A DNA stretch of 37,506 nucleotides from Thalassospiraceae bacterium (lineage in GTDB: Bacteria; Pseudomonadota; Alphaproteobacteria; Rhodospirillales; Magnetovibrionaceae): the NCBI GenBank assembly GCA_030637205.1, contig DAOVVL010000001.1:1-37506 (forward strand). The letters are read 5' to 3'. Position 1 is the stretch's first letter. The number at the start of each line of letters is the position of its first letter. The notes under the pieces were generated by a model. It had not been told where the DNA came from and searched no databases. It saw only the letters and a program-made list of their open reading frames with translations. The position numbers and the translations under genes were made by a program. Shown piece after piece: positions 294-29,894 of this stretch.

Positions 294-1185
294 TGATATT
301 CTAGGAACCATTTTCGGGGGCGCAGATACGAGCGCCCAGGAATTTCAAAGGGCCGCTAATCTGGAAGCCAGACGAGCGATCGATGTAAGCACCGAGCAGG
401 CCCGCGCTGACGCGCTTTCTCTTTTCCCCCAAGCCGATGTAAGCAGAAACCTTGGGTTTCAGGCCGCTTTGGACGTCTTGGGCCAGACTATTCCCTCACA
501 ATTGCAGGCATTCCAGCAGGGGAATGTCGCTGCTCAGCAAAACCTTCTGGCTGGGCTACCGCAAGCCCGCGCCGCAATCCTTGGCGGTCAGTTTGATCCA
601 GCGGGATTTCAGGCCACAGAACTAGCATTCGACCCCAGCTTCGCCCAGCAGACTCTTCCAACCTTCCCCACAGGCGCGGTTCCGCGCACAGCAGCCCAAC
701 AGCAGGCTCAAGGCACTCAGGCCCTCACACAGCTATTGGCTGGCGCACAAGGCGCTGGCGGCGGCGGAGATGGGTTTGATTTTGAAAGCACAACCACAGG
801 CACCGGCGACATTTTGGCCGATTTGTCAGCTTTCTTGGAAACAGGCCCCGGCAAAATCGCAGGTTTGGCTCTTCCTGGCGGTGGCATAGCTGCGCTGGTG
901 AATGAACTCTTTGGTGGTGCTGGTTCAACATCAGCGGGCCAAATCGGAACCAGCAGTGAACCTGGCATTGATCCGAGGACCAGATCAGCTCGGCTCCAGG
1001 CCGAAAGTCGTGCAAGGGCTGGTGTGCGTGGGACCACCCAAAGGGCCGGATTTGAGCGTGATATTACCAGACGTTCCAGAGAAAGATCACAGGCCACCAG
1101 AGAGGCAATCGATCGCCTTCGTGACCCATCGACGGGGCGCGTAAGAAGCGCGCGCGAAACCGGAAGCGCATTTGCGCGCAATTGA
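280..1185 (+). CDS. Virion internal/ejection-protein candidate 1 (301 aa, A/G/Q-rich)
   Basis: AGGAG lies about 8 nt upstream of the ATG. It is the first of four tightly packed ORFs after the gp10-like hub, the position held by the ejection-protein block in P22-type genomes. No specific motif recognised. Confidence 0.55.
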   Translation: MSVFDDILGTIFGGADTSAQEFQRAANLEARRAIDVSTEQARADALSLFPQADVSRNLGFQAALDVLGQTIPSQLQAFQQGNVAAQQNLLAGLPQARAAILGGQFDPAGFQATELAFDPSFAQQTLPTFPTGAVPRTAAQQQAQGTQALTQLLAGAQGAGGGGDGFDFESTTTGTGDILADLSAFLETGPGKIAGLALPGGGIAALVNELFGGAGSTSAGQIGTSSEPGIDPRTRSARLQAESRARAGVRGTTQRAGFERDITRRSRERSQATREAIDRLRDPSTGRVRSARETGSAFARN

Positions 1186-1200
1186 TTGAGGATTTGAGAC

Positions 1201-2031
1201 ATGGCACTCGCACCAACCACCGTCGCCGCAAACGCAATCCCAACGGGCCTTTTGGGGTCAGAGGACGCTTTGCGCCGAGCTTTATCAGGCGCGCTTACAG
1301 GCGTTGAAGCGGGAGCCGTTCGGGGAACCCGGACGCTTCGACCTTTCACACGCGGCGGCGCGCAGGCATTTGAGCTTCAGACAGCTTTATCGGGCGCTGG
1401 TGGCGCACCGGCACAGGCACAAGCCTTTGAAGAATTTACAGCCTCGCCCGGTCAGCAATTCCTGCGAGATGCAGCCGAGAGGGCGCTGTTGAGGAATGAG
1501 GCCGCTATCGGTGGCTTAGGCGGTGGCCGTGTCCGCACAGCATTGCAGGAACAAGGTGTTGGCTTGGCGGCGCAGGACTTTGGTGAGCAATTCGGTCGTT
1601 TGGGCCAGGTTGCCGGATTGGGCGGTCAATTAGCTGGCCAACAGGCAGGCCTTGAGTTCGGCGAGGGCCGCGACGTAGGGCAGTTGGCGTTTCAGACGGG
1701 CCAAACCCTAGCCAGTGGGCGCACGCGCGCTGGTGAGCAAATAGCGGGCCAGATCGGGGGCACTACAAGCGCCCTTGCCAACCTTGCGGCCCAACAGGGC
1801 CAGGGCTTGGCTGATATTTTCGGCGCCGGTGGCGGAAACCTCGCTAATCTATTATCAGCCGCCGGGCGTGAACAAGGCTTGAGCGGACAGCAATTGGCAA
1901 CGCTTCTGGCCAATATCTCGACGGGTTCGGCTGCACAAGTCGCAGGCCTGCCGGGCATCCCCGGTATTCAGCAAACGGAATCGAAATTAGGCGATATCGG
2001 AAAACTCGTCACCGCATTTGGGACTTTGTAA
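1201..2031 (+). CDS. Virion internal/ejection-protein candidate 2 (276 aa, G/A/Q-rich low complexity)
   Basis: Long ORF collinear with its neighbours. The function call rests on synteny only. Confidence 0.5.
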   Translation: MALAPTTVAANAIPTGLLGSEDALRRALSGALTGVEAGAVRGTRTLRPFTRGGAQAFELQTALSGAGGAPAQAQAFEEFTASPGQQFLRDAAERALLRNEAAIGGLGGGRVRTALQEQGVGLAAQDFGEQFGRLGQVAGLGGQLAGQQAGLEFGEGRDVGQLAFQTGQTLASGRTRAGEQIAGQIGGTTSALANLAAQQGQGLADIFGAGGGNLANLLSAAGREQGLSGQQLATLLANISTGSAAQVAGLPGIPGIQQTESKLGDIGKLVTAFGTL

Positions 2032-2032
2032 A

Positions 2033-3124
2033 ATGGCAGATGATACAGAACAGCGGTTTGGATTATTCAGCCCGGAAACTGGCACAAAGGTCCAGCGGTT
2101 TGGCGCTGCCCTGAGTGGCCGTTTGCCGGAATTTGATGTGGCAGCCCAAACGCGCCAAGAAGAACTGAGCGCAGAGCGCAAGAAGGCATTTTTGCTTGAT
2201 AACCGTGGTGCGCTTCGGTTGCTTCGTGGTGGGAACACCCAAGGCGCTGTTGATTTGCTCAGAAACCGTGTCGGCGAAATAAACCGTCTCGGCGGTGATG
2301 CCACACAGTCAACCCAGCTTCTTGCCATGGCCGAGGCTGGCGAGACCGAGGCGTTAATTTCTGGCCTTCAAACGATTGATAACCGGGCCGTTGATGCAGG
2401 TATCTTTGATGCGCTTCCAGGTTCAGAAGATGTCGCGCTTGTGGTCAAGTCGTCTGATATCCTGCCCGATGGCACTGTGATCCAATCCACAAGCGAAGGA
2501 GTGCGGGTAATTGCCGCCACTGGGGAGCAATTGCATGGCCAAGATGTGGTCGATGCGATCGAAAAGGGCCGCAAATTCGGAGTTACAATTGCTGGCGACA
2601 CGGCTGCAGCCAAAGCCGAAGCAGATCGCGTCAAACAGGGCATCAGGATTTCGGGCGAGATGTTCAAACAGGTTGGGCCCATCCGGCAATCTTTGCTCAC
2701 GATTGGCAAAGCGCGGCAGGCTCTTGCAGAAGGCGCGGAAACGGGCGCGATCGACAAATTCCTGCCTGATTTACGGGAATCCTCAATCAAACTCACCAAC
2801 CTGATGAACCAGTTGGGCCTTGAGGTAATCAGCGGGGCCACCTTTGGCGCTCTGTCTGCTGGTGAACTTCGTTTGGCTTTGGACACTGCATTGCCTACGG
2901 GCCTACAACCAGAAGCACTGGACAAATGGTTGGCGGATAAAGGATTGGCTCAGACCAAGCTTTTAACCGAGCTTCAGGACGACATTATATTCCTTTCCAA
3001 TGGTGGGACTATCGCCGGGATCGTGCAAAGACGCCGTGCCCAGGCGGAAACAACACCACCCTCCGTGGATAAACCTATTGATCAGTTGACCGACGAAGAA
3101 TTGCTGGGGGCATTGAGGCAATAA
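2033..3124 (+). CDS. Virion internal/ejection-protein candidate 3 (363 aa)
   Basis: ATG 2033 lies 1 nt after the upstream stop, so the track start at 2018 would overlap the previous gene. The function call rests on synteny only. Confidence 0.5.
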   Translation: MADDTEQRFGLFSPETGTKVQRFGAALSGRLPEFDVAAQTRQEELSAERKKAFLLDNRGALRLLRGGNTQGAVDLLRNRVGEINRLGGDATQSTQLLAMAEAGETEALISGLQTIDNRAVDAGIFDALPGSEDVALVVKSSDILPDGTVIQSTSEGVRVIAATGEQLHGQDVVDAIEKGRKFGVTIAGDTAAAKAEADRVKQGIRISGEMFKQVGPIRQSLLTIGKARQALAEGAETGAIDKFLPDLRESSIKLTNLMNQLGLEVISGATFGALSAGELRLALDTALPTGLQPEALDKWLADKGLAQTKLLTELQDDIIFLSNGGTIAGIVQRRRAQAETTPPSVDKPIDQLTDEELLGALRQ

Positions 3125-20013: not shown

Positions 20014-20142
20014 ATGTGGGACGATTGGGAAAACTTTGACTTTGAAGTCGAAAGGCTTCTGTGGATATTCGGTGTGGTGATTGTCGGAATAATCGCCGCC
20101 ATCTTTGTCATCAGCATTGCCGCAGGGATTTTAGAACCATGA
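20014..20142 (+). CDS. Possible 42-aa single-TM peptide (MWDDWENFDFEVERLLWIFGVVIVGIIAAIFVISIAAGILEP)
   Basis: GGGGGA SD lies 5 nt upstream. Its stop overlaps the DnaB ATG (ATGA). Confidence 0.45.
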   Translation: MWDDWENFDFEVERLLWIFGVVIVGIIAAIFVISIAAGILEP

Positions 20143-21599
20143 ACGACGCCGAACAATACCAACCAGAACCAGAAGAACAGCCCGAAGAGATGCCCGCCAA
20201 CATAGAGGCAGAAATGGGGCTGCTCGGCACAATAATGAACCAGAACGAGGTTTATGATCAGATTTGCGACATCGTGAAGGCAGAGCATTTCGCCTATCCA
20301 GAACACGCCCGGATATTTGAGGTCTGCACTGATCTGATCAACAGCGATCACTCCGCCGATGTGGTCTCGGTGGGCCACAAATTAAAGCCCGAGGACGGAG
20401 TTGACGGTGAGCTTTTGGCCGCCATCTTTGCCAGCTTCGCCGGCCCGGTCCACGCGCGGGGGTACGCCGCAGTTATTCGCGATCTGTTTTTAAGGCGGAG
20501 TTTGATTGTGCTGGGCCGCGATATAGAGGCCTCGGCACACGAAGAACAGGACGGGGCCCAAATTGTCGAAGAAGCTGAACGGCACCTTTCGGAACTGGTT
20601 GGTGACAGCGCCACGGAAAACACCAAGACCCGGAGCGAATTATCCAGCCAAACCCTCACCATCCTTGAGCGCAAATACAACGACCCCCACAAATTGACGG
20701 GCCTGTCCACTGGCATTGCAACGCTGGACCGAATCGTGATGGGGCTGGAAGCGCCGCATTTGATTATTCTGGCAGGGCGCCCAGGGATGGGAAAGACCGC
20801 CTTGGCCCAGCTTATGGCGATGACCGCAGCCCGGAAACACGCAGAAACGGATGGAGAGGAGGGCGCGCCGGTTGGGTTCTTTTCCTTGGAAATGTCGGCG
20901 GACGAACTGAACACTCGGTTTATCGCCGATGAGGCAAATATCCCGATCGGCACTCTGCGCTCTGGCCTATACGATAAAATGAACCGCGTCGCGGAATGGA
21001 ACAAAGTGGTTGAGCATGGCCAGAGGTTGGCCACGTATCCCCTTTATATCGATGACAGGGGCGGGGCCAGCGCCATGGCCATCAGGGCGCGCGCAAGGCG
21101 CATGAAACGCCGCCACGGGCTGGGTCTGGTGGTTGTTGACCAGTTGAGCCATATCGTGGCTGATCCGCGCTTAAAACGTGTTGAGGCGCTTGGACAGACA
21201 ACCAAAGATATGAAGATGATGGCGAAAGAACTTGAGGTTCCGGTGGTGTTGCTTCATCAGCTTTCTCGCGCGGTTGAAATGCGGGACGATAAGCGCCCCG
21301 TGCTTTCAGACTTGCGGGATAGCGGAGAAATTGAACAGGACGCCGATGTGGTTCTATTTGCCTTCAGGGAGCAATATTATCTGGAGCGCGAAGAGCCAGC
21401 CCAACGGGCCACCGAGACCGTCGAACAATTTGTTGGCCGCCAGGGGATTTGGTCGGAGAGACTGAGACACGCCACCAACCGGGCCGAGATCATTGTTGGC
21501 AAGCAGCGTATGGGCGGGATTGGACGGGCCAAGGCCTCATTTGAAGGCCAATATACCCGGTTTGGAAATATTGAATACCAGCAGGAGGAGATGCTCTGA
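20139..21599 (+). CDS. dnaB: Replicative DNA helicase DnaB
   Basis: N-terminal NIEAEMGLLGTIM, Walker A GRPGMGKTALA, Walker B LVVVDQLS, and LSRAVEMRDDKRPVLSDLRDSGEIEQDADVV. Start taken at ATG 20139, coupled to the upstream micro-ORF. Confidence 0.9.
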   Translation: MNDAEQYQPEPEEQPEEMPANIEAEMGLLGTIMNQNEVYDQICDIVKAEHFAYPEHARIFEVCTDLINSDHSADVVSVGHKLKPEDGVDGELLAAIFASFAGPVHARGYAAVIRDLFLRRSLIVLGRDIEASAHEEQDGAQIVEEAERHLSELVGDSATENTKTRSELSSQTLTILERKYNDPHKLTGLSTGIATLDRIVMGLEAPHLIILAGRPGMGKTALAQLMAMTAARKHAETDGEEGAPVGFFSLEMSADELNTRFIADEANIPIGTLRSGLYDKMNRVAEWNKVVEHGQRLATYPLYIDDRGGASAMAIRARARRMKRRHGLGLVVVDQLSHIVADPRLKRVEALGQTTKDMKMMAKELEVPVVLLHQLSRAVEMRDDKRPVLSDLRDSGEIEQDADVVLFAFREQYYLEREEPAQRATETVEQFVGRQGIWSERLRHATNRAEIIVGKQRMGGIGRAKASFEGQYTRFGNIEYQQEEML

Positions 21600-22621
21600 T
21601 GGCCGAACTACCGCAAATGCCATGGTTCCCGAGGGATTACCAGGCCGACACCCGGCACTTGACCCTCGAAGAACACGGCGCCTATCGGATGCTGCTGGAC
21701 CTTCTCTGGATCGGAAACTGCAAGGGGCTGCCCACTGATGACAAGCGGCTGGCCCGGATGCTTGGGATCACCGAGCGCAAATGGCTAACCATAAAAGAGG
21801 CAGTTTTGGAGTTCTTCGACGAAAGTGGGGGGAGCTTATTTAATTCCCGTGTGCTTAAGGAGTGGGAATTTGTTTCGCGAAAGGTCGAGGCGAACAGAGC
21901 CAACGCGATAAAAGGTGGAAAGGCTAGAGCTTTGAAAAACAAACAAACCGCTCCAGCCAACGGCGCAGCCAAAGGGGTGCCAAACCCGAGCGAAACCCTG
22001 CTAACGCAGACGCATACGCATACGCATAAGAACTTAACCGAAACCGAGGACGACGCTACCCCGTTGCCTGACGAGGCGACACCCGAGGTGCTTGATGAGA
22101 TAGATTTGGAAATACCAGAAAGTATGCGCCGAGAATCTAAACCGAAAGCCACCGACCTGATCGCGGCCTTCGATAAAATCCGGGCCGAGATTTATGGCGA
22201 AAATATGGCGCGGCCTTGGCCCAATCAATCCGACCACACCACCGCCCAGCAATGGCTGGACAACGGCGCCACCGTCGAAATGGTGGAGGGCGTGCTGCGC
22301 GGGGCGATGGCCGGGATGCAGGGGCGCAACGACGATCCTCCCGAACTGCTCAAGTTTTTCCAGAGGTCGATCGCTGGGGCCATCAAGCAATCCAAGCAGC
22401 CAATGCCCGAAGGCTTCCCAGAACGCAAGGGTGGGCGCCAAGGCCCGGTTGGCTTACACGCCGACGCCGAGACAAACCGATGGGACGGCTTGGTCGCTGG
22501 ATATTTCAAGGATGGCTTCTGGCCGGGGATGGTTGGGCCAACTCCACATGAGGACGGATGCGAAGCACCGCCAGAATTGATTGAAAAATACAGGCCGAAA
22601 GAGGAAACCAATGGGTTATAG
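21599..22621 (+). CDS. DUF1376 (YdaU-like) replication-associated protein, putative replisome organiser
   Basis: The N-terminus MPWFPRDYQADTRHLTLEEHGAYRMLLDLLW is the DUF1376 signature. ATG overlaps the DnaB stop. Confidence 0.65.
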   Translation: MAELPQMPWFPRDYQADTRHLTLEEHGAYRMLLDLLWIGNCKGLPTDDKRLARMLGITERKWLTIKEAVLEFFDESGGSLFNSRVLKEWEFVSRKVEANRANAIKGGKARALKNKQTAPANGAAKGVPNPSETLLTQTHTHTHKNLTETEDDATPLPDEATPEVLDEIDLEIPESMRRESKPKATDLIAAFDKIRAEIYGENMARPWPNQSDHTTAQQWLDNGATVEMVEGVLRGAMAGMQGRNDDPPELLKFFQRSIAGAIKQSKQPMPEGFPERKGGRQGPVGLHADAETNRWDGLVAGYFKDGFWPGMVGPTPHEDGCEAPPELIEKYRPKEETNGL

Positions 22622-23471
22622 GCTGCAGGTTCTCGATCTTTTCTCAGGAATCGGCGGTTTTTCGCTTGGCTTAGAAAACACAGGTGGTTTTGAAACCGTG
22701 GCCTTCTGTGAAATTGACCCATACGCCCAGAAGGTTTTGAAAAAACACTGGCCTGATGTGCCAATTTTTGAAGACGTTAAGGAATTGAAGGGAAACGAAG
22801 TTGGACCAATTGACCTTATTTGCGGCGGATACCCATGCCAGCCCTTCTCCGTTGCCGGGGAGCGACGAGGCACGGAAGATGACCGCCACCTCTGGCCGGA
22901 AGTGTATCGGATCGTGGTTGCCGAACGGCCCGATTGGTGCCTGTTTGAGAATGTTGTTGGGCACATCACGATGGGCCTCGACGAAGTGCTTTCTGACTTG
23001 GAAGCCGCAGGATACACCGTCTGGACGTTTGTTATTCCGGCTGTCGCCGTCGATGCCCCGCACCGCCGCGATCGGGTCTGGATTGTGGGCCACCGCCAGC
23101 GCGAGGGATTGGAAAGACACGCCGGGCATGGCAACGACCGGGATCAACCCGGACGGCAGCGAGAGAATGCGCCTCGACCAACTGGCGCGCCAGGTCTACG
23201 CATCCCTGTGGCCGACGCCAACGGCCTGTTGCCACCAGAACCCCGGAGAACACGGCCAGGGGGGGCAAAATCTGGTAACGGAAGTGTGCCGGCAACCAGA
23301 CGGGGCGATGCCGACTACTGGCTCCCTGAATCCGCAGTGGGTCGAGTGGCTAATGGGATTCCCCGAAGGGTGGACCGACTTAGATGCTTAGGAAACGCGG
23401 TGGTTCCTCAAGTAGTTGAAATGATCGGTCGTGCAATTTTAGAAGCAGAAGGAGAAAGCCCCAATGGATAG
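22611..23471 (+). CDS. DNA (cytosine-5) methyltransferase, short form
   Basis: Motif I LFSGIGGFSLG, motif IV GGYPCQPFS, motif VI ENV, motif VIII APHRRDRVWIVG and motif X LGNAVVPQV are all in one uninterrupted frame. GAGGAAA SD lies upstream of ATG 22611. Confidence 0.9.
   Translation: MGYRLQVLDLFSGIGGFSLGLENTGGFETVAFCEIDPYAQKVLKKHWPDVPIFEDVKELKGNEVGPIDLICGGYPCQPFSVAGERRGTEDDRHLWPEVYRIVVAERPDWCLFENVVGHITMGLDEVLSDLEAAGYTVWTFVIPAVAVDAPHRRDRVWIVGHRQREGLERHAGHGNDRDQPGRQRENAPRPTGAPGLRIPVADANGLLPPEPRRTRPGGAKSGNGSVPATRRGDADYWLPESAVGRVANGIPRRVDRLRCLGNAVVPQVVEMIGRAILEAEGESPNG
22801..23391 (+). CDS. Candidate overprinted ORF in the +1 frame of the C5-MTase gene (196 aa from TTG 22801, or 170 aa from ATG 22879)
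   Basis: The frame is open from the stop at 22786..22788 to TAG 23389..23391. GAAGGGA lies 7 nt upstream of the TTG. The translation contains SGLWATASARDWKD, WPTPTA and a C-terminal LNPQWVEWLMGFPEGWTDL, which I recognise as signatures of phage MTase-associated proteins. See findings. Confidence 0.4.
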   Translation: MDQLTLFAADTHASPSPLPGSDEARKMTATSGRKCIGSWLPNGPIGACLRMLLGTSRWASTKCFLTWKPQDTPSGRLLFRLSPSMPRTAAIGSGLWATASARDWKDTPGMATTGINPDGSERMRLDQLARQVYASLWPTPTACCHQNPGEHGQGGQNLVTEVCRQPDGAMPTTGSLNPQWVEWLMGFPEGWTDLDA

Positions 23472-24544: not shown

Positions 24545-25819
24545 ATGCACGGCGCGTTAAACCAAAAGATGAAGATTGCCAGCCTTCCGCTTGAAGACCT
24601 TATCCCCTACGCCAGCAACAGCCGCACCCATTCCGACGAACAGGTGGCCCAGATAGCCGCCTCAATCAGCGAATTTGGTTTTAACAATCCAGTGCTGATC
24701 GACGAAGCCGGGGGCATCATCGCAGGGCACGGCAGAGTATTGGCCGCCCGGAAGCTGGGGCTGACTGATATTCCGACCATTCGCCTCACCCACCTCACCG
24801 AAAACCAGCGCAAAGCCTATGTGATAGCCGACAACAAGCTGGCCCTGAATGCCGGCTGGGATATGGGCGTCCTTCAACTGGAAATGCAGGCGCTCGACAG
24901 CGAGGGCTTCGATCTTTCCCTGCTTGGCTTCGATGAGACCGAGCTGATCAGCATATTCGCCACCGAAACCGAAGGCCTCACCGACCCAGACGAAATCCCC
25001 TACCTCCCAGACACCCCGGTTTCCCAGCTTGGCGACGTGTGGCTCTTGGGCGAACACAGGCTCATGTGCGGCGATAGCACCGACACCACCAACGTGGCGG
25101 CCCTGTTGGAAGGCCGTGAGGCCGATATGGTGTTCACCGACCCGCCCTGGAACGTGAACTATGGCGCAGTCGAGAAGGGAAACGCCCAAGGCTACAAGGT
25201 GCGAACCATCCTCAACGACAGCATGACCGCAGACGATTGGGTTAAATTCTGCGCCGACGTTGCCGTGTCTCTTCGCAGCGCAACAAAACCCGGCGCGCCG
25301 CTTTACTGCGTCATGTCCGCGCAGGAATGGCCCGTGATCGACAAGGCTCTGCGCTTGGCCGGCTTCCACTGGTCCTCGTCCATTATCTGGGCCAAGGACA
25401 CGCTGGTTCTAAGCCGAAAGGACTATCACACTCAGTATGAACCCATCTGGTATGGCTGGAACGCGGCAGCAGCCCGATTGGCGAAGGTTCCTGATCGGAA
25501 GCAGTCCGACCTCTGGCAGTGTGACCGACCCAAGAAATCAGAGCTGCACCCCACCACAAAGCCCGTGGAATTGGTGGAGCGGGCAGTCAACAATTCATCC
25601 CAGCCCGGAGACCTTGTCCTTGATCTATTCGGGGGATCGGGCACCACATTGATCGCTGCACAGCAAACCGGACGCAAAGCTTGCTTGATGGAAATGGACC
25701 CGAAGTATGCCGACGTGATCGTTAAACGCTGGCAGAACTTCACCGGGCAGCAGGCCAAACGAGAGGGCAGCGGGGAAACTTTCTCCCAGCGCAGCGGAGT
25801 TTCTGAAAATGGCACGTAA
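24545..25819 (+). CDS. ParB-like nuclease domain fused to a beta-class N6A/N4C DNA methyltransferase
   Basis: The N-terminus is LPLEDLIPYASNSRTHSDEQ...NPVLIDEAGGIIAGHGRVLAARKLG (ParB/Srx). It is followed by motif IV FTDPPWNVNYG and C-terminal motif I LVLDLFGGSGTTLIAAQQTGRKACLMEMD. Confidence 0.9.
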   Translation: MHGALNQKMKIASLPLEDLIPYASNSRTHSDEQVAQIAASISEFGFNNPVLIDEAGGIIAGHGRVLAARKLGLTDIPTIRLTHLTENQRKAYVIADNKLALNAGWDMGVLQLEMQALDSEGFDLSLLGFDETELISIFATETEGLTDPDEIPYLPDTPVSQLGDVWLLGEHRLMCGDSTDTTNVAALLEGREADMVFTDPPWNVNYGAVEKGNAQGYKVRTILNDSMTADDWVKFCADVAVSLRSATKPGAPLYCVMSAQEWPVIDKALRLAGFHWSSSIIWAKDTLVLSRKDYHTQYEPIWYGWNAAAARLAKVPDRKQSDLWQCDRPKKSELHPTTKPVELVERAVNNSSQPGDLVLDLFGGSGTTLIAAQQTGRKACLMEMDPKYADVIVKRWQNFTGQQAKREGSGETFSQRSGVSENGT

Positions 25820-26192
25820 AGCTACCGGGAACCCAAACGGACGGCCACCTTTCAAGCCAACGGCTGAGGAGAGAAAGACTGTTGAAATGATGGGGGCTGT
25901 CGGGGTGCCACAGGCAAGCATCGCCATGTGCATAAGGGACGGGATAGACGTCAAAACTCTCAAGGAACATTTCGGACCCGAATTAAAAACGGCCCTGATC
26001 AAAGCCAATGCGAAGGTAGCCGGCGCCATGTTCAACAAGGCAATCAAGGGTGACGTCGGCGCAGGACGCTTCTGGCTCAATTGCCGCGCGGGCTGGAAAG
26101 AAACCAACGTCAATGAAATGACCGGGAATCCTGTGGTCAATCAGTTTGTGTTTGTCCCGATGGGGGTCGACGATGAACCAAATAAAGATTGA
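25809..26192 (+). CDS. Terminase small subunit candidate
   Basis: A 127-aa basic N-terminus with an HTH-like segment (VGVPQASIAMCIRDGIDVKTLKEHF), immediately upstream of and overlapping TerL. Confidence 0.6.
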   Translation: MARKATGNPNGRPPFKPTAEERKTVEMMGAVGVPQASIAMCIRDGIDVKTLKEHFGPELKTALIKANAKVAGAMFNKAIKGDVGAGRFWLNCRAGWKETNVNEMTGNPVVNQFVFVPMGVDDEPNKD

Positions 26193-27681
26193 ATACGTCC
26201 AGAACCTCCATCCCATATTCACCAAAGAAAAGCGCATTAAGATCATTGTTGGCGGGCGCGGTTCGTCCAAGTCAACTGGCGTGGCGGATTATGTGGCGGC
26301 CAAAGTATCAAGCGGGGAATTGTGGTGCTGCGCGCGTGAGACCCAGAACTCCATTGAGGAAAGCGTACACCGCACGTTGCTTGAGGAAATCGAGCGCCTT
26401 GGCATATATGGATTCGAGGATACCAAGACCGGAATTAAGCACCTCGACACCGGGGGCCGCACGTTCTACCGGGGGCTATCGCGCAACATTACAGCCCTGA
26501 AGTCCACCCTATCGGGCATTGACGGCCTGTGGATTGAGGAAGGCGAGGACATATCCCACGACACGCTTAGGGTTCTCACCGCCTCTGTGCGCTTGAATGC
26601 GACCGATACAGCCCGCAAGATCGCCGGCGAAGAGGTCAAGCTTCCTGAGATCATCATCACCATGAACCGAGGCACACGGGCTGGGGCTATCGCTGAGAAA
26701 TGGTTGGCCCGAGCTGAACGGGATCTGGGGCGCTGTGGGTTCTACGAAGACGAAAACATTATGGTAGTCGAAATGAACTATACCGATATGCCGAAGGGAT
26801 GGTTTCTTGAGTCGGGTCTGGAATCGGAGCGCCGAGACGACGAAGAGAAAATGTCGCGGGCGGAATATGACCACAAATGGGGGGGCGCCTATCTGGATGA
26901 AATCGAGGGAACGATTATCAAAACCGAGTGGTTCGACGCCGCGATCGATGCTCACCTAAAGCCCAACCTTGTCGAAGTATTCAAGCCCCATGGTTCCATT
27001 ATCGCCTCGCATGATCCGTTCGATGACGGGAACGACGCCGGGGGCTTCGCCACACGCCACGGCTCAATCATCACACAGGTGGATTCCAAGACCTCGGGTG
27101 AGATCGATGAGGTCTGTGATTGGGCCACAGGGCTGGCTATTGCTGCTGGGGCGGATTGGTTCACATGGGATGGGGATGGCATGGGAACGGGCCTCAAGCG
27201 CCAGGTGGCCCTCGCATTCGAGGGGACCAAGACCAAGTACCACATCTTCAAGGGGTCTCTGTCTGGATTAGGACAGGACAACGCCAAGAGGATATATATG
27301 CCTGAGGGTGGGGATAAGGACACCAAGCCCAAGAATTACGCCCAAACCTTCAAGAACAACCGTGCGCAGTATTATTCCGAACTGGCCCGGCGGTTTTTCA
27401 ACACCTACAACTGCGTGGTGAAGGGCAAATATGTGGACCCCGACGATATGATCAGCCTCGCCAGCGCGGGCATTGAGGATATGACAGGCCTCAGAACCCA
27501 GCTTTGCCGCATCCCGCGCAAGCCGAATGGAACGGGTCTGGTCCAGATCATGAGCAAGGTGGAAATGGCCAAATTAAAAATCTCTTCCCCAAACGAGGGG
27601 GACGCGGTTATGATGAGCCTGTTTTCGCCAACCGAGGCAGCCCAATTCAAGGGCCTAGATTTTGATGGATGGAATGGTTGA
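26173..27681 (+). CDS. terL: Terminase large subunit
   Basis: Walker A VGGRGSSKST and Walker B GLWIEEGED, with a C-terminal nuclease-like half. ATG 26173 was chosen because GGGGG lies upstream, but the track start at 26146 is also possible. Confidence 0.88.
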   Translation: MNQIKIEYVQNLHPIFTKEKRIKIIVGGRGSSKSTGVADYVAAKVSSGELWCCARETQNSIEESVHRTLLEEIERLGIYGFEDTKTGIKHLDTGGRTFYRGLSRNITALKSTLSGIDGLWIEEGEDISHDTLRVLTASVRLNATDTARKIAGEEVKLPEIIITMNRGTRAGAIAEKWLARAERDLGRCGFYEDENIMVVEMNYTDMPKGWFLESGLESERRDDEEKMSRAEYDHKWGGAYLDEIEGTIIKTEWFDAAIDAHLKPNLVEVFKPHGSIIASHDPFDDGNDAGGFATRHGSIITQVDSKTSGEIDEVCDWATGLAIAAGADWFTWDGDGMGTGLKRQVALAFEGTKTKYHIFKGSLSGLGQDNAKRIYMPEGGDKDTKPKNYAQTFKNNRAQYYSELARRFFNTYNCVVKGKYVDPDDMISLASAGIEDMTGLRTQLCRIPRKPNGTGLVQIMSKVEMAKLKISSPNEGDAVMMSLFSPTEAAQFKGLDFDGWNG

Positions 27682-29894
27682 TGGTAGATTTTGCTGACCA
27701 CCAAGAAGTTGTGACGCTTTTCAATGAGGCGCAACGTGTTGAAATCGACAACCGAGCGCGCGCGGCAGATGCCCATAGTTTCATCGACGACCCGAGCGGC
27801 CAGTGGGAAACCAACTTCACCACTGACGACAAAAAGCCCCGCTATACCTTCGACCTTACCAACCCCATCGTTGAGCAGATTGCCGGCGAAATGGAGCAGG
27901 CCGACTTCGATATCCGCATCAAACCAGCCGGCGGCGAAGCCACCAAAGACGACGCCCAGCTAATCGATGGCATGATCCGGAATATCGAAAACATATCCAG
28001 CGCCTCAGATATCTTTAATGCGTCCGGGCGCAGCATGGTAACGGCAGGGATCGACGGGTGGCGCGTGGAGCAGAGATTTGTCGACCACAACAGCTTTGAC
28101 CAAGACCTGGTTATCGCCCCCCTTCTGGACTTTGCCAACCGGGTCTGGTTCGATCCCAACGCCAGGAAGCAGGACAAATCCGACGCCAAATATTGCTTTG
28201 TGATCCAGCCCATCGGCAAAGAGGAATATAAGGAAAAGTTCCCCGAAGGCTCGGAGCAATCAGTGAGCGGCAACAACGGCTCGATCTGCTCCACCACTTC
28301 AAACGCCGAATGGGGCTACAAGCCTGACGATATCTTCATTGGCCAGATTTATTTCAAGAAGGAAGTGAAGCGCGATATCCACCTGCTATCCGATGGCCGG
28401 GTGGTTGAGGACGATGAGGACTTTGCAAAGATCAAAGACGACTTGGCCTTGAACGGAATCGTTGTCGAGCAAACCCGCAGCCGTCCCAAGATTGTTGTGG
28501 TATCACGCCTGTTCGATGCAAACGATTGGCTGATTGGCCCAGAAGAAACTGTGTTCAGTTGGATTCCTGTGGTCCCGACCTACGGCAACTACAAAATCAA
28601 CCGCAACAAAACCATGTATCGCGGCGTGGTCCAGAAGCTGATGGATCCCCAGCGCGTGATGAATTACAGCCTGAGCCGTGAGATTGAGGAAGGCGCCCTT
28701 GCCCCCCGCGCCAAGTTCTGGATGACTACCAAACAGGTGGCTGGCTTCGAAGACACAATCCAGACCTTGAACACCAACGCAAACCCGGTTCAGCTTTACA
28801 ACTTTGATTCCGACGTCCCCGGCATTCCCGGCACCACCGGCGGCGCGACAGTGAACCCCGGCCTTCGCACCATATCGCTGGCCATGAAGGATATGATCAG
28901 CTTTTCGGCTGGTTTGTTCGCGGCCAATATGGGGGACAACCCCGGCCTGCAATCAGGCATTGCTATTGAACGGCTGCAGAACAAGGGTGACACCGGCACC
29001 ATTAACTATTTCCAATCCCAAGAAATCGCCATCTGCCACACCGCGCGCATCCTGATTGATGCGTTGCCCAAGGTCTACGATACCAAGCGCCAGGTTCGCA
29101 TCCTAAAAGAGGACGGCTCGTTCGATATGAAGATGTTGAACGATATGGAACTCGACCAGGAAACCCAAGAAATGGTCAAGGTCAACGACCTATCCAAAGG
29201 CAAGTACGACGTGACCTGTTCCGCCGGCCCATCGTTCCAGAACAGGCAGCAGGAAGCTGTCACGGGCATTGTCGAGGCATCCAGCGTCAATCCGGAAATC
29301 AGCTTGGTCGGCAGCGATATCCTGATGAAGAACATGACCTTCCCCGGATCCGAACAGATTGGCGATCGCTTGAGGGCGCAGCTATTTGACCAAGGCATGA
29401 TCCCGGTCGATCAGATGACGGACGAAGAAAAAGAAGAAATGCTGGCCGCTCAACAGGCGAGGGAAGAGCAGGGCGACCAACCCACTCCGGACCAGATGAT
29501 CGGCGAGGCCGAGCTTATCAAGGCCCAGAACGAACAGGACAAGACCCAGATCAGCGTTGAGGAAAAGAGCCAGAATATCCTGCTGGCCCAGAACAAGGAA
29601 CGCCGCGAGGACGCCAAGTTCAGGGAATCGGTGAGAAGCGGCGCCGCTACCTTCGCCCAGACCGAACAGCAGAACCAGTTCGAGCGCATCGCCGCTACCC
29701 AGAAGCAGCAATCAGTGGATCAACAGGCTTTGCTTGATTCGGTGAAGACCATGGCCGAGACCCTGAAGCTCATCCAGGAGGCCGCCCAAGGCCCCGTGGT
29801 GGGGCCGGGCTTCGTCAGCAACGTCAAGGAGCAGTCCGATCTTGTGACGGACGCCCAAGACGCTGTTGAACATGGTGCGGTTAATCTTCCCTAA
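27669..29894 (+). CDS. Portal protein (P22 gp1-like size and position)
   Basis: 741 aa, overlapping the TerL stop, with the Q/E-rich helical C-terminal extension typical of P22-type portals. Confidence 0.8.
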   Translation: MEWLMVDFADHQEVVTLFNEAQRVEIDNRARAADAHSFIDDPSGQWETNFTTDDKKPRYTFDLTNPIVEQIAGEMEQADFDIRIKPAGGEATKDDAQLIDGMIRNIENISSASDIFNASGRSMVTAGIDGWRVEQRFVDHNSFDQDLVIAPLLDFANRVWFDPNARKQDKSDAKYCFVIQPIGKEEYKEKFPEGSEQSVSGNNGSICSTTSNAEWGYKPDDIFIGQIYFKKEVKRDIHLLSDGRVVEDDEDFAKIKDDLALNGIVVEQTRSRPKIVVVSRLFDANDWLIGPEETVFSWIPVVPTYGNYKINRNKTMYRGVVQKLMDPQRVMNYSLSREIEEGALAPRAKFWMTTKQVAGFEDTIQTLNTNANPVQLYNFDSDVPGIPGTTGGATVNPGLRTISLAMKDMISFSAGLFAANMGDNPGLQSGIAIERLQNKGDTGTINYFQSQEIAICHTARILIDALPKVYDTKRQVRILKEDGSFDMKMLNDMELDQETQEMVKVNDLSKGKYDVTCSAGPSFQNRQQEAVTGIVEASSVNPEISLVGSDILMKNMTFPGSEQIGDRLRAQLFDQGMIPVDQMTDEEKEEMLAAQQAREEQGDQPTPDQMIGEAELIKAQNEQDKTQISVEEKSQNILLAQNKERREDAKFRESVRSGAATFAQTEQQNQFERIAATQKQQSVDQQALLDSVKTMAETLKLIQEAAQGPVVGPGFVSNVKEQSDLVTDAQDAVEHGAVNLP

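Follow-up and report, generated by a model that had tools for sequence, protein, structure and literature searches.

A phage locus read in two frames that probably encodes both subunits of a DNA cytosine-5 methyltransferase

The stretch of DNA analysed here, called the window, comprises 37,506 nucleotides of contig DAOVVL010000001.1 (assembly GCA_030637205.1, from a Thalassospiraceae bacterium; positions 1 to 37,506, forward strand) and looks like a complete 37.5-kb phage contig. It contains a gene with the signatures of a DNA cytosine-5 methyltransferase (C5-methyltransferase), alpha, inside which a second open reading frame (ORF), beta, lies on the same strand in the +1 frame. The motifs, starts and stops that a first-pass annotation had assigned to the two frames are all present at the positions it gave (Table 1). 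The alpha ORF can be extended upstream to a TTG at 22581, and the database gene call (P0121) is the 286-residue form used here. Judged from sequence, the locus very probably encodes a heterodimeric C5-methyltransferase, one stretch of DNA being read in two frames to give its two chains.

Residues 6-168 of alpha match PF00145 (E = 1.9e-48) and TIGR00675 (E = 1.5e-42), both matches covering motifs I-VIII only, and motifs I (FxGxG), IV (PCQ), VI (ENV) and VIII (RxR) follow one another in order along the chain. The full-length protein matches phrog_363 at 1.8e-80 and has at least 8,000 homologues at E ≤ 1e-3, all scored candidates having passed. In an AlphaFold2 (AF2) model built with 111 homologues, the predicted local distance difference test score (pLDDT) was 64-96 by 10-residue block for residues 1-167, with most blocks above 84, and about 73-95 for residues 261-280. 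Residues 168-248 scored below 50 and were modelled without secondary structure; this spacer is rich in Arg, Gly, Pro and Ala and 26% hydrophobic. The best Foldseek matches of the model were M.HhaI and M.HaeIII over about 165 columns, large domain only (31% identity, E = 9e-14), and the alpha profile aligned to M.HhaI residues 10-176 (1e-26) and weakly to residues 299-318, which hold motif X. The motif X of alpha, LGNAVVPQV, aligns to YKQFGNSVV of M.HhaI, and its G261, N262 and P266 are invariant in the 111 homologues. Alpha thus shares with M.HhaI and M.HaeIII the large-domain fold and motifs I-VIII and X; those enzymes, however, are single chains with the target-recognition domain (TRD) and motif IX in the same frame between VIII and X, which the window splits. 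Between VIII and X on alpha, residues 168-248 yielded neither, being without a Pfam match, unconserved and of low pLDDT. The alpha profile also matched residues 2-175 of the 376 in PDB entry 3g7u, an Escherichia coli prophage CP-933R methyltransferase (E = 3.3e-20).

The first-pass annotation had held that the +1 translation did not look like off-frame noise, and searches with beta on its own agreed: it matches phrog_1008 at 1e-31 and, over its full length, 2,863 database proteins with a best E of 6e-62. No match was obtained in Pfam or NCBIfam, and the beta profile found nothing relevant among PDB sequences. Near its C-terminus beta carries the motif IX-like sequence LNPQWVEWLMGFPEGWT. In relatives, one to six modules resembling WPTPxAxD lie within the 80 residues between beta W96 and motif IX, and the size of this segment fits the TRD of M.HhaI. 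We infer that the WPTP-type modules form the TRD and that in beta the small domain, made up of this TRD and motif IX, comes after an N-terminal arm for docking, with alpha as the large domain. In 57 of 75 relatives an ATG occurs at most 30 codons upstream of a conserved LTLF, often exactly at the position of the window TTG and accompanied by a motif resembling a Shine-Dalgarno (SD) sequence. Among the 26 residues ahead of the internal ATG at 22879, A13, P19 and G20 are nearly invariant, and the start at 22801 is therefore favoured.

Conservation of the nested ORF was assessed in 80 IMG/VR loci fetched with alpha residues 1-170 only, which avoids circularity; they contained 70 unique complete alpha ORFs with G+C contents (GC) of 38-65%. 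The longest open run in the +1 frame had a median of 236 codons and reached at least 150 codons in 68 of the 70 loci, against a median of 45 codons and 0/70 loci in the +2-frame control, so the +1 frame is open beyond expectation in homologues, a point that the first-pass annotation had proposed to check. When synonymous codons were reshuffled with each alpha protein kept fixed (300 shuffles per locus), none of the shuffles attained the observed +1 ORF length at 54 of the 70 loci. Phages of Paenibacillus, Rhodobacter, Vibrio, cyanobacteria and acidobacteria show this nesting as well, and the second ORF is always +1. Likewise, the closest beta homologue (P0001, 51% identity) is nested within an alpha ORF on a Mu-like contig. 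In tblastn searches of GenBank phages with both translations of 23077-23468, both frames matched phage METHYLTRANSFERASE genes; the +1 translation was covered to at least 80% in 60 of 71 phage records, and the frame 0 translation to that extent in 2 of 50, elsewhere over just its last ~48 residues. Four loci depart from the pattern. L010 has an in-frame stop in beta, and in L015 such a stop interrupts the alpha spacer; in L079 the TRD and motif IX share the frame of alpha, and motif X is in the third frame; and L089, in a prophage of E. coli 23CRST032 (1876-2656), is flagged by RefSeq as a pseudogene and has stops in both frames a few bases apart. These exceptions may be decaying copies, assembly errors or further architectures.

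To compare selection between the frames, codons were aligned under guidance from alpha in 77 loci and from beta in 75. Only positions with the same amino acid in both members of a pair and a four-fold degenerate third base were counted, and the synonymous fraction is the share of pairs in which that base differs (Table 1). Within the nested ORF, alpha fractions were 0.33-0.46, against 0.70-0.71 in the alpha-only flanks, so that the suppression of synonymous variation for which the first-pass annotation had proposed to look is present. In sliding windows the alpha value dropped at the beta start, stood at 0.31-0.39 across residues 111-150 and returned to 0.70 right past the beta stop. Constraint acts on both frames over 22801-23090 and is stronger on alpha. 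Over 23091-23388 beta is the selected frame, with sliding-window fractions of 0.61-0.69, and alpha is little beyond kept open; in the motif IX region the values were 0.24-0.33 for alpha and 0.61-0.63 for beta. In the spacer zone (23091-23325) the amino acid identity among relatives was 0.17 for alpha versus 0.40-0.42 for beta at the WPTP blocks. Both ORFs are kept by purifying selection.

A per-codon table of motif IX gives the direction of this dependence. Wobble bases of beta vary (V181, for example, ends in C 32 times, A 26, G 14 and T once), the genetic code dictates by its structure which alpha residues stand over the motif (R or G; I, V or L; D, H or N), and a T that would make a TGA stop in alpha is avoided. 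Because its residues follow the beta codons, the widespread alpha string GRVAxGxPxRVD is essentially a frameshift image of the beta sequence WVEWLMGFPxGW. The first-pass annotation had described GRVAxGxPxRVDRL and WVEWLMGFPxGWTD as frameshift images of each other; the comparison bears this out and adds that the beta motif is the one selected while alpha mostly follows. An image of the same kind is the SETPSSRKS tail of longer beta homologues, which is the +1 reading of alpha LGNAIVPQVA.

In a few relatives the division between the chains falls elsewhere. In L064, L090/L091 and L092, alpha ends just past motif VIII (about 10-14 codons), and a beta-type chain with arm, WPTP modules and motif IX runs in frame into RLKALGN(S/G)xVP, motif X; the arm still overprints alpha motifs IV-VIII. 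Because it is fused in frame to motif X in these loci, the beta-type sequence is integral to the methyltransferase. When single-chain relatives were sought with a hybrid query (beta TRD and motif IX joined to alpha motif X), none of the best 120 of 528 matches carried PF00145; nearly all of these 120 covered the beta part alone, and a few were M.AquI-like beta chains with motif X. In L090 a 26-residue element, FPNEPEIARVTTENQYRKDRLKALGN (~2990-3067), stands in frame downstream of motif IX and is colinear with WLPEPxVGRVAxGxPxRVDRLKALGN of alpha (window 23319-23399). The window counterpart of this element overlaps motif IX in the other frame, and in L090 the string exists without the overlap. 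That the element in L090 and L092 might be duplicated motif IX DNA read in the other frame is unsupported, the nucleotide identity being no better than random.

Table 1. Positions of the two overlapping genes, their motifs and zones, genes nearby, and comparable loci in relatives, with synonymous fractions by frame. Positions are those of the window unless a relative is named.
Feature	Position	Strand	Alpha synonymous fraction	Beta synonymous fraction	Remarks
Alpha gene (frame 0 ORF)	ATG 22611..23471 TAG	+			286 amino acids; motifs I-VIII, 81-residue spacer, motif X
Alpha-only 5' part	22611..22800	+	0.70 (unconstrained baseline)	n/a	contains motif I LFSGIGGF, 22638-22661
Open +1 frame	from TGA 22786-22788 to TAG 23389-23391	+			read from sequence
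SD-like GAAGGGA	22787..22793	+			7-nt spacer to beta TTG start; read from sequence
Beta gene (nested +1-frame ORF)	22801..23391	+			196 amino acids from TTG 22801; N-terminal arm, WPTP-type modules, motif IX
Beta alternative start	internal ATG 22879	+			
Dual-constraint zone	22801..23090	+	0.46	0.29	alpha motifs IV-VIII over beta N-terminal arm (LFAADTHASPSPLPGS..TWKPQDTPSGRLLFRL..)
GGYPCQPFS (alpha)	22824-22850	+			frame 0
ENV (alpha)	22947-22955	+			frame 0
RRDRVWIVG (alpha)	23064-23090	+			frame 0
SGLWATASARDWKD (beta)	23077-23118	+			+1 frame
Beta-driven zone	23091..23325	+	0.34	0.64	beta WPTP-type modules (putative TRD) over alpha spacer
WPTPTA (beta)	23209-23226	+			+1 frame
Beta putative motif IX LNPQWVEWLMGFPEGWTDL	23326..23382	+			overlaps alpha string PESAVGRVANGIPRRVDRL
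Beta motif IX zone	23326-23391	+	0.33	0.61	
GRVANGIPRRVDRL (alpha)	23340-23381	+			followed by RCLGNAVVPQV
Alpha motif X RLRCLGNAVVPQV	23376..23414	+			alpha-only past beta stop 23389-23391
Alpha-only 3' part	23392-23468	+	0.71	n/a	
Beta peptide DWKDTPGMATTGINPDGSER	+1 frame	+			part of predicted beta chain
DnaB helicase	20061-21599				
DUF1376 primosomal protein	21599-22621				
ParB_N + N6/N4 methyltransferase fusion	24545-25819				PF01555 1.2e-30; phrog_498 8e-153
Terminase	26146-27681				
Portal	27669-29894				
Cylindrospermopsis phage Cr-LKS3 (L002, OM373202)	alpha 888-1802; nested ORF 1015-1752				annotated: nested only
Tunturiibacter phage Tunturi_1 (L006, PP887698)	alpha 1023-2111; nested ORF 1108-2085				annotated: nested only
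Paenibacillus phage BN12 (L007, MG727695)	alpha 1278-2348; nested 1480-2184				both annotated 'DNA-cytosine methyltransferase'
Relatives L090, L091, L092 and L064	L090 2008-3136; L092 1891-3076				+1 ORF of 319-470 amino acids; arm, WPTP modules and motifs IX + X in one chain

The arrangement has a precedent in M.EcoHK31I of E. coli HK31 (recognition sequence YGGCCR). In published summaries this is a two-polypeptide C5-methyltransferase with motifs I-VIII and X on alpha and motif IX on beta; its beta coding sequence falls wholly within the alpha gene and is read in a different frame, beta binds alpha less strongly once its N-terminus is shortened by deletion, and translation of beta can begin at internal Met codons 17 and 26 (PMC2836561, PMC3404938). 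The window alpha likewise has motifs I-VIII as well as X and lacks IX, its beta is nested within alpha in the +1 frame, and a conserved Met 27 in beta parallels Met codons 17 and 26. The chains are also alike in size, with 309 and 176 amino acids in M.EcoHK31I and 286 and 196 in the window. Unlike M.EcoHK31I, which is part of a restriction-modification system, the window enzyme would be an orphan phage enzyme. M.EcoHK31I was reportedly described by Lee, Kam and Shaw in 1995 and by Fung et al. in 2006. The window appears to repeat its layout feature by feature, a kind already described in 1995, and the statement in the first-pass annotation that none of its explanations was known to have been described does not hold, since the M.EcoHK31I beta lies within the alpha gene in another frame. 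When the window DNA was used as query against E. coli genomes, the only match was a pseudogenised prophage homologue of the same family.

A second point of comparison is M.AquI of Agmenellum quadruplicatum (CYCGRG), summarised as a natural two-subunit C5-methyltransferase split in the variable region, with motifs I-VIII on alpha and the distal TRD plus motifs IX and X on beta, in tandem (PMC3404938). In the window, unlike M.AquI, the genes are nested and motif X lies in the alpha frame past the beta stop; L064 and L090-L092 have the M.AquI-like distribution of motifs, yet their beta arm overlaps alpha motifs IV-VIII. The two M.AquI ORFs, reportedly described by Karreman and de Waard in 1990, overlap in different frames. 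The A/B and D/E pairs of phiX174 also have one gene nested in another on the same strand in a different frame, and there too the host gene varies less at synonymous sites. Unlike those pairs, the window products are probably subunits of one enzyme, and the overlap is much longer, 196 codons here and up to ~540 in relatives. It looks as if only the beta N-terminal arm was overprinted de novo, the TRD and motif IX being the native small domain moved into another frame.

Taken as a mechanism, the proposed heterodimer would be made as follows. Alpha would be translated straight through to give the S-adenosylmethionine (AdoMet)-binding, catalytic large domain, with motifs I-VIII, a spacer of ~80 residues that is predicted to be unstructured, and the motif X helix. 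Beta would initiate independently, probably on the same transcript, at TTG 22801 with its own SD-like site and possibly at ATG 22879 too. Its arm, ~95 residues that overprint alpha motifs IV-VIII, is probably the part by which beta attaches to alpha, and beta would supply what alpha lacks, namely the docking arm, the WPTP-type modules as putative TRD, and motif IX. Together the two chains would rebuild a canonical C5-methyltransferase with a large and a small domain; both are presumably needed for activity.

Several observations weigh against this reading. The AF2 model of beta alone is poor (pLDDT 64.8; predicted template-modelling score 0.32) and gave no Foldseek PDB match at E ≤ 0.001; a chain folding in contact with its partner could give such a model, although the model counts as no evidence for that. 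In hhalign, the beta profile and M.HhaI shared a single segment, beta 171-192 (PTTGSLNPQWVEWLMGFPEGWT) with HhaI 269-290 (GKTRKLHPRECARVMGYPDSYK, motif IX), at a weak E of 0.12, although both place and pattern suit motif IX; the M.HhaI sequence used was confirmed over its residues 10-176 and 299-318 by printed alignments. The C-terminal end of PF00145 matched beta motif IX joined to alpha motif X at E = 0.088, a short and statistically weak match, and gave no match to the C-terminal part of alpha itself. In the window beta starts with TTG, which is weak as a start codon. Of the 300 synonymous reshuffles of the window alpha, 23 reach 200 open codons; taken by itself, the ORF length here is thus only marginally unusual and no more than suggestive, and the family comparison is decisive. 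The likeness to M.EcoHK31I is one of layout, compared by description, and the published summaries place the M.EcoHK31I TRD on alpha (PMC2836561, PMC3404938), whereas in the window the conserved WPTP modules are on beta and the alpha segment between VIII and X is unconserved and predicted to be disordered. Placing the TRD on beta either departs from the M.EcoHK31I precedent or reinterprets it. Finally, the locus is known here from its sequence alone.

The poor model of beta alone, the weak motif IX similarity and the absence of Pfam, NCBIfam and PDB matches would also suit a beta that is a real, selected, overprinted protein with a function apart from methylation, such as a regulator or an anti-defence factor. 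We consider this improbable. Alpha has no motif IX and no folded small domain, the motif IX-like block that closes beta occupies the place of motif IX in a canonical enzyme, the beta-type chain is fused in frame to motif X in relatives, beta accompanies alpha in 68 of 70 loci, and methylation by M.EcoHK31I requires beta.

Alongside an overprinted +1 gene, the explanation that fits the conserved nested ORF, the suppressed synonymous sites of alpha, the separate start signal and the large family, the first-pass annotation had offered two ALTERNATIVES, which we rejected. One is recoding, in which a +1 shift after motif VIII and a -1 shift near GAT-GCT-TAG would yield a single long-form methyltransferase (I-VIII, TRD, IX, X). 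The frame 0/+1/frame 0 hybrid does have the canonical motif order, and the C-terminal end of PF00145 fits the joined motifs IX and X better than alpha alone, but recoding is very improbable: there is no slippery heptamer or stop-stimulated shift site near 23090 or 23385; frame 0 stays open to 23471 and nearly all relatives lack a frame 0 stop after motif VIII, unlike programmed +1 frameshift genes; ~95 beta codons upstream of the would-be shift site are under selection and have their own SD-like site and start; and M.EcoHK31I works as two separately expressed polypeptides. We also know of no precedent for two efficient shifts in one gene. GGGAAAC at 22790-22796, the sole X_XXY_YYZ heptamer in the alpha frame, overlaps the SD-like site just upstream of where beta starts. 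It was considered for a -1 shift and discarded, since ribosomes slipping there would enter not the beta frame but the +2 frame with its many stops. The other, that the +1 ORF is a decaying relic of an ancestral frameshift left open by chance, to which we add a sequencing-indel artefact, could appeal to the GC-rich window gene, to the equally long +1 ORFs among its shuffles and to an indel-prone run of seven G at 23259, and is already refuted by the comparative data, namely a +1 frame open in 68 of 70 independent loci (some of only 38% GC) while +2 never is, the 54 loci never matched by shuffling, synonymous suppression specific to the beta borders, and a G7 run that is unconserved in relatives.

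This G7 homopolymer (23259-23265) lies inside the dual-coding zone, where slippage by one G in replication or transcription would alter the downstream frame. Some run of at least seven occurs in 22 of 77 ORFs, mostly A7 near the 5' end and at unconserved positions. A role of the G7 run in programmed slippage or phase variation was rejected because it is unconserved in relatives; it is probably incidental, but an indel and sequencing-error hotspot.

The gene order around the locus is DnaB helicase, DUF1376 protein, the alpha/beta methyltransferase, the ParB_N-methyltransferase fusion, terminase and portal. Among the neighbouring genes examined, none was recognised as coding for a restriction enzyme; three small nearby ORFs had no match. 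Because of this, and because the locus lies within the phage replication module, the most likely role of the enzyme is to methylate the DNA of the phage itself and so guard it against host restriction. The second methyltransferase begins 1 kb downstream of alpha/beta, which places two orphan methyltransferases just upstream of the terminase. The DUF1376 primosomal gene contains a tandem repeat, (ACGCAT)x3 at 22010-22027, read as THTHTH in the protein.

The family to which the locus belongs is large. Among 1.84 billion cluster representatives, the beta profile matched 43,924 at E ≤ 1e-3, 28,493 at E ≤ 1e-10 and 3,723 at E ≤ 1e-30, the clusters being defined at 50% identity. Its annotation in phage records is inconsistent: most annotate alpha only, as in Rhodobacter phage RcCWillis, phage C72C1, MW202733 and Vibrio phage Vaitephage, whereas Cr-LKS3 and Tunturi_1 annotate beta only, the nested ORF being labelled 'methyltransferase' in such records and the full alpha ORF left out. 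Paenibacillus larvae phages annotate both ORFs, on which the accompanying paper does not comment (PMC6070908). We found no description of a phage-wide nested family in the searchable literature, although one may exist elsewhere. Within that literature, what look new are the size and poor annotation of the family, the frame-by-frame split of selection, and the probable location of the TRD on beta. We lean slightly towards the broader view that the M.EcoHK31I layout is standard for a very large, mostly phage-borne clade of C5-methyltransferases, in which the nested beta would hold the whole small domain (modular WPTP-type units plus motif IX) and the variable region of alpha would be a disordered placeholder kept open just to reach motif X.

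Because gene callers keep one of two nested genes, thousands of phage methyltransferases are on record with alpha or beta but not both. Once the pair is recognised, these entries would be put right, and common strings such as GRVAxGxPxRVDRL and SETPSSRKS would be explained as frameshift images. Naturally split methyltransferases are already in use for targeted methylation, according to an account in PMC2836561, and should the TRD lie on beta, the beta chain alone could serve to predict or engineer methylation specificity. The family supplies tens of thousands of natural long same-strand overlaps with a clear division of labour between frames, and the nested and M.AquI-like architectures could show how a domain moves into another reading frame. 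If the architecture is clade-wide, specificity would evolve by changes to beta inside the alpha spacer, and few sets of long same-strand gene overlaps (200-540 codons) in prokaryotic viruses would match this clade in size.

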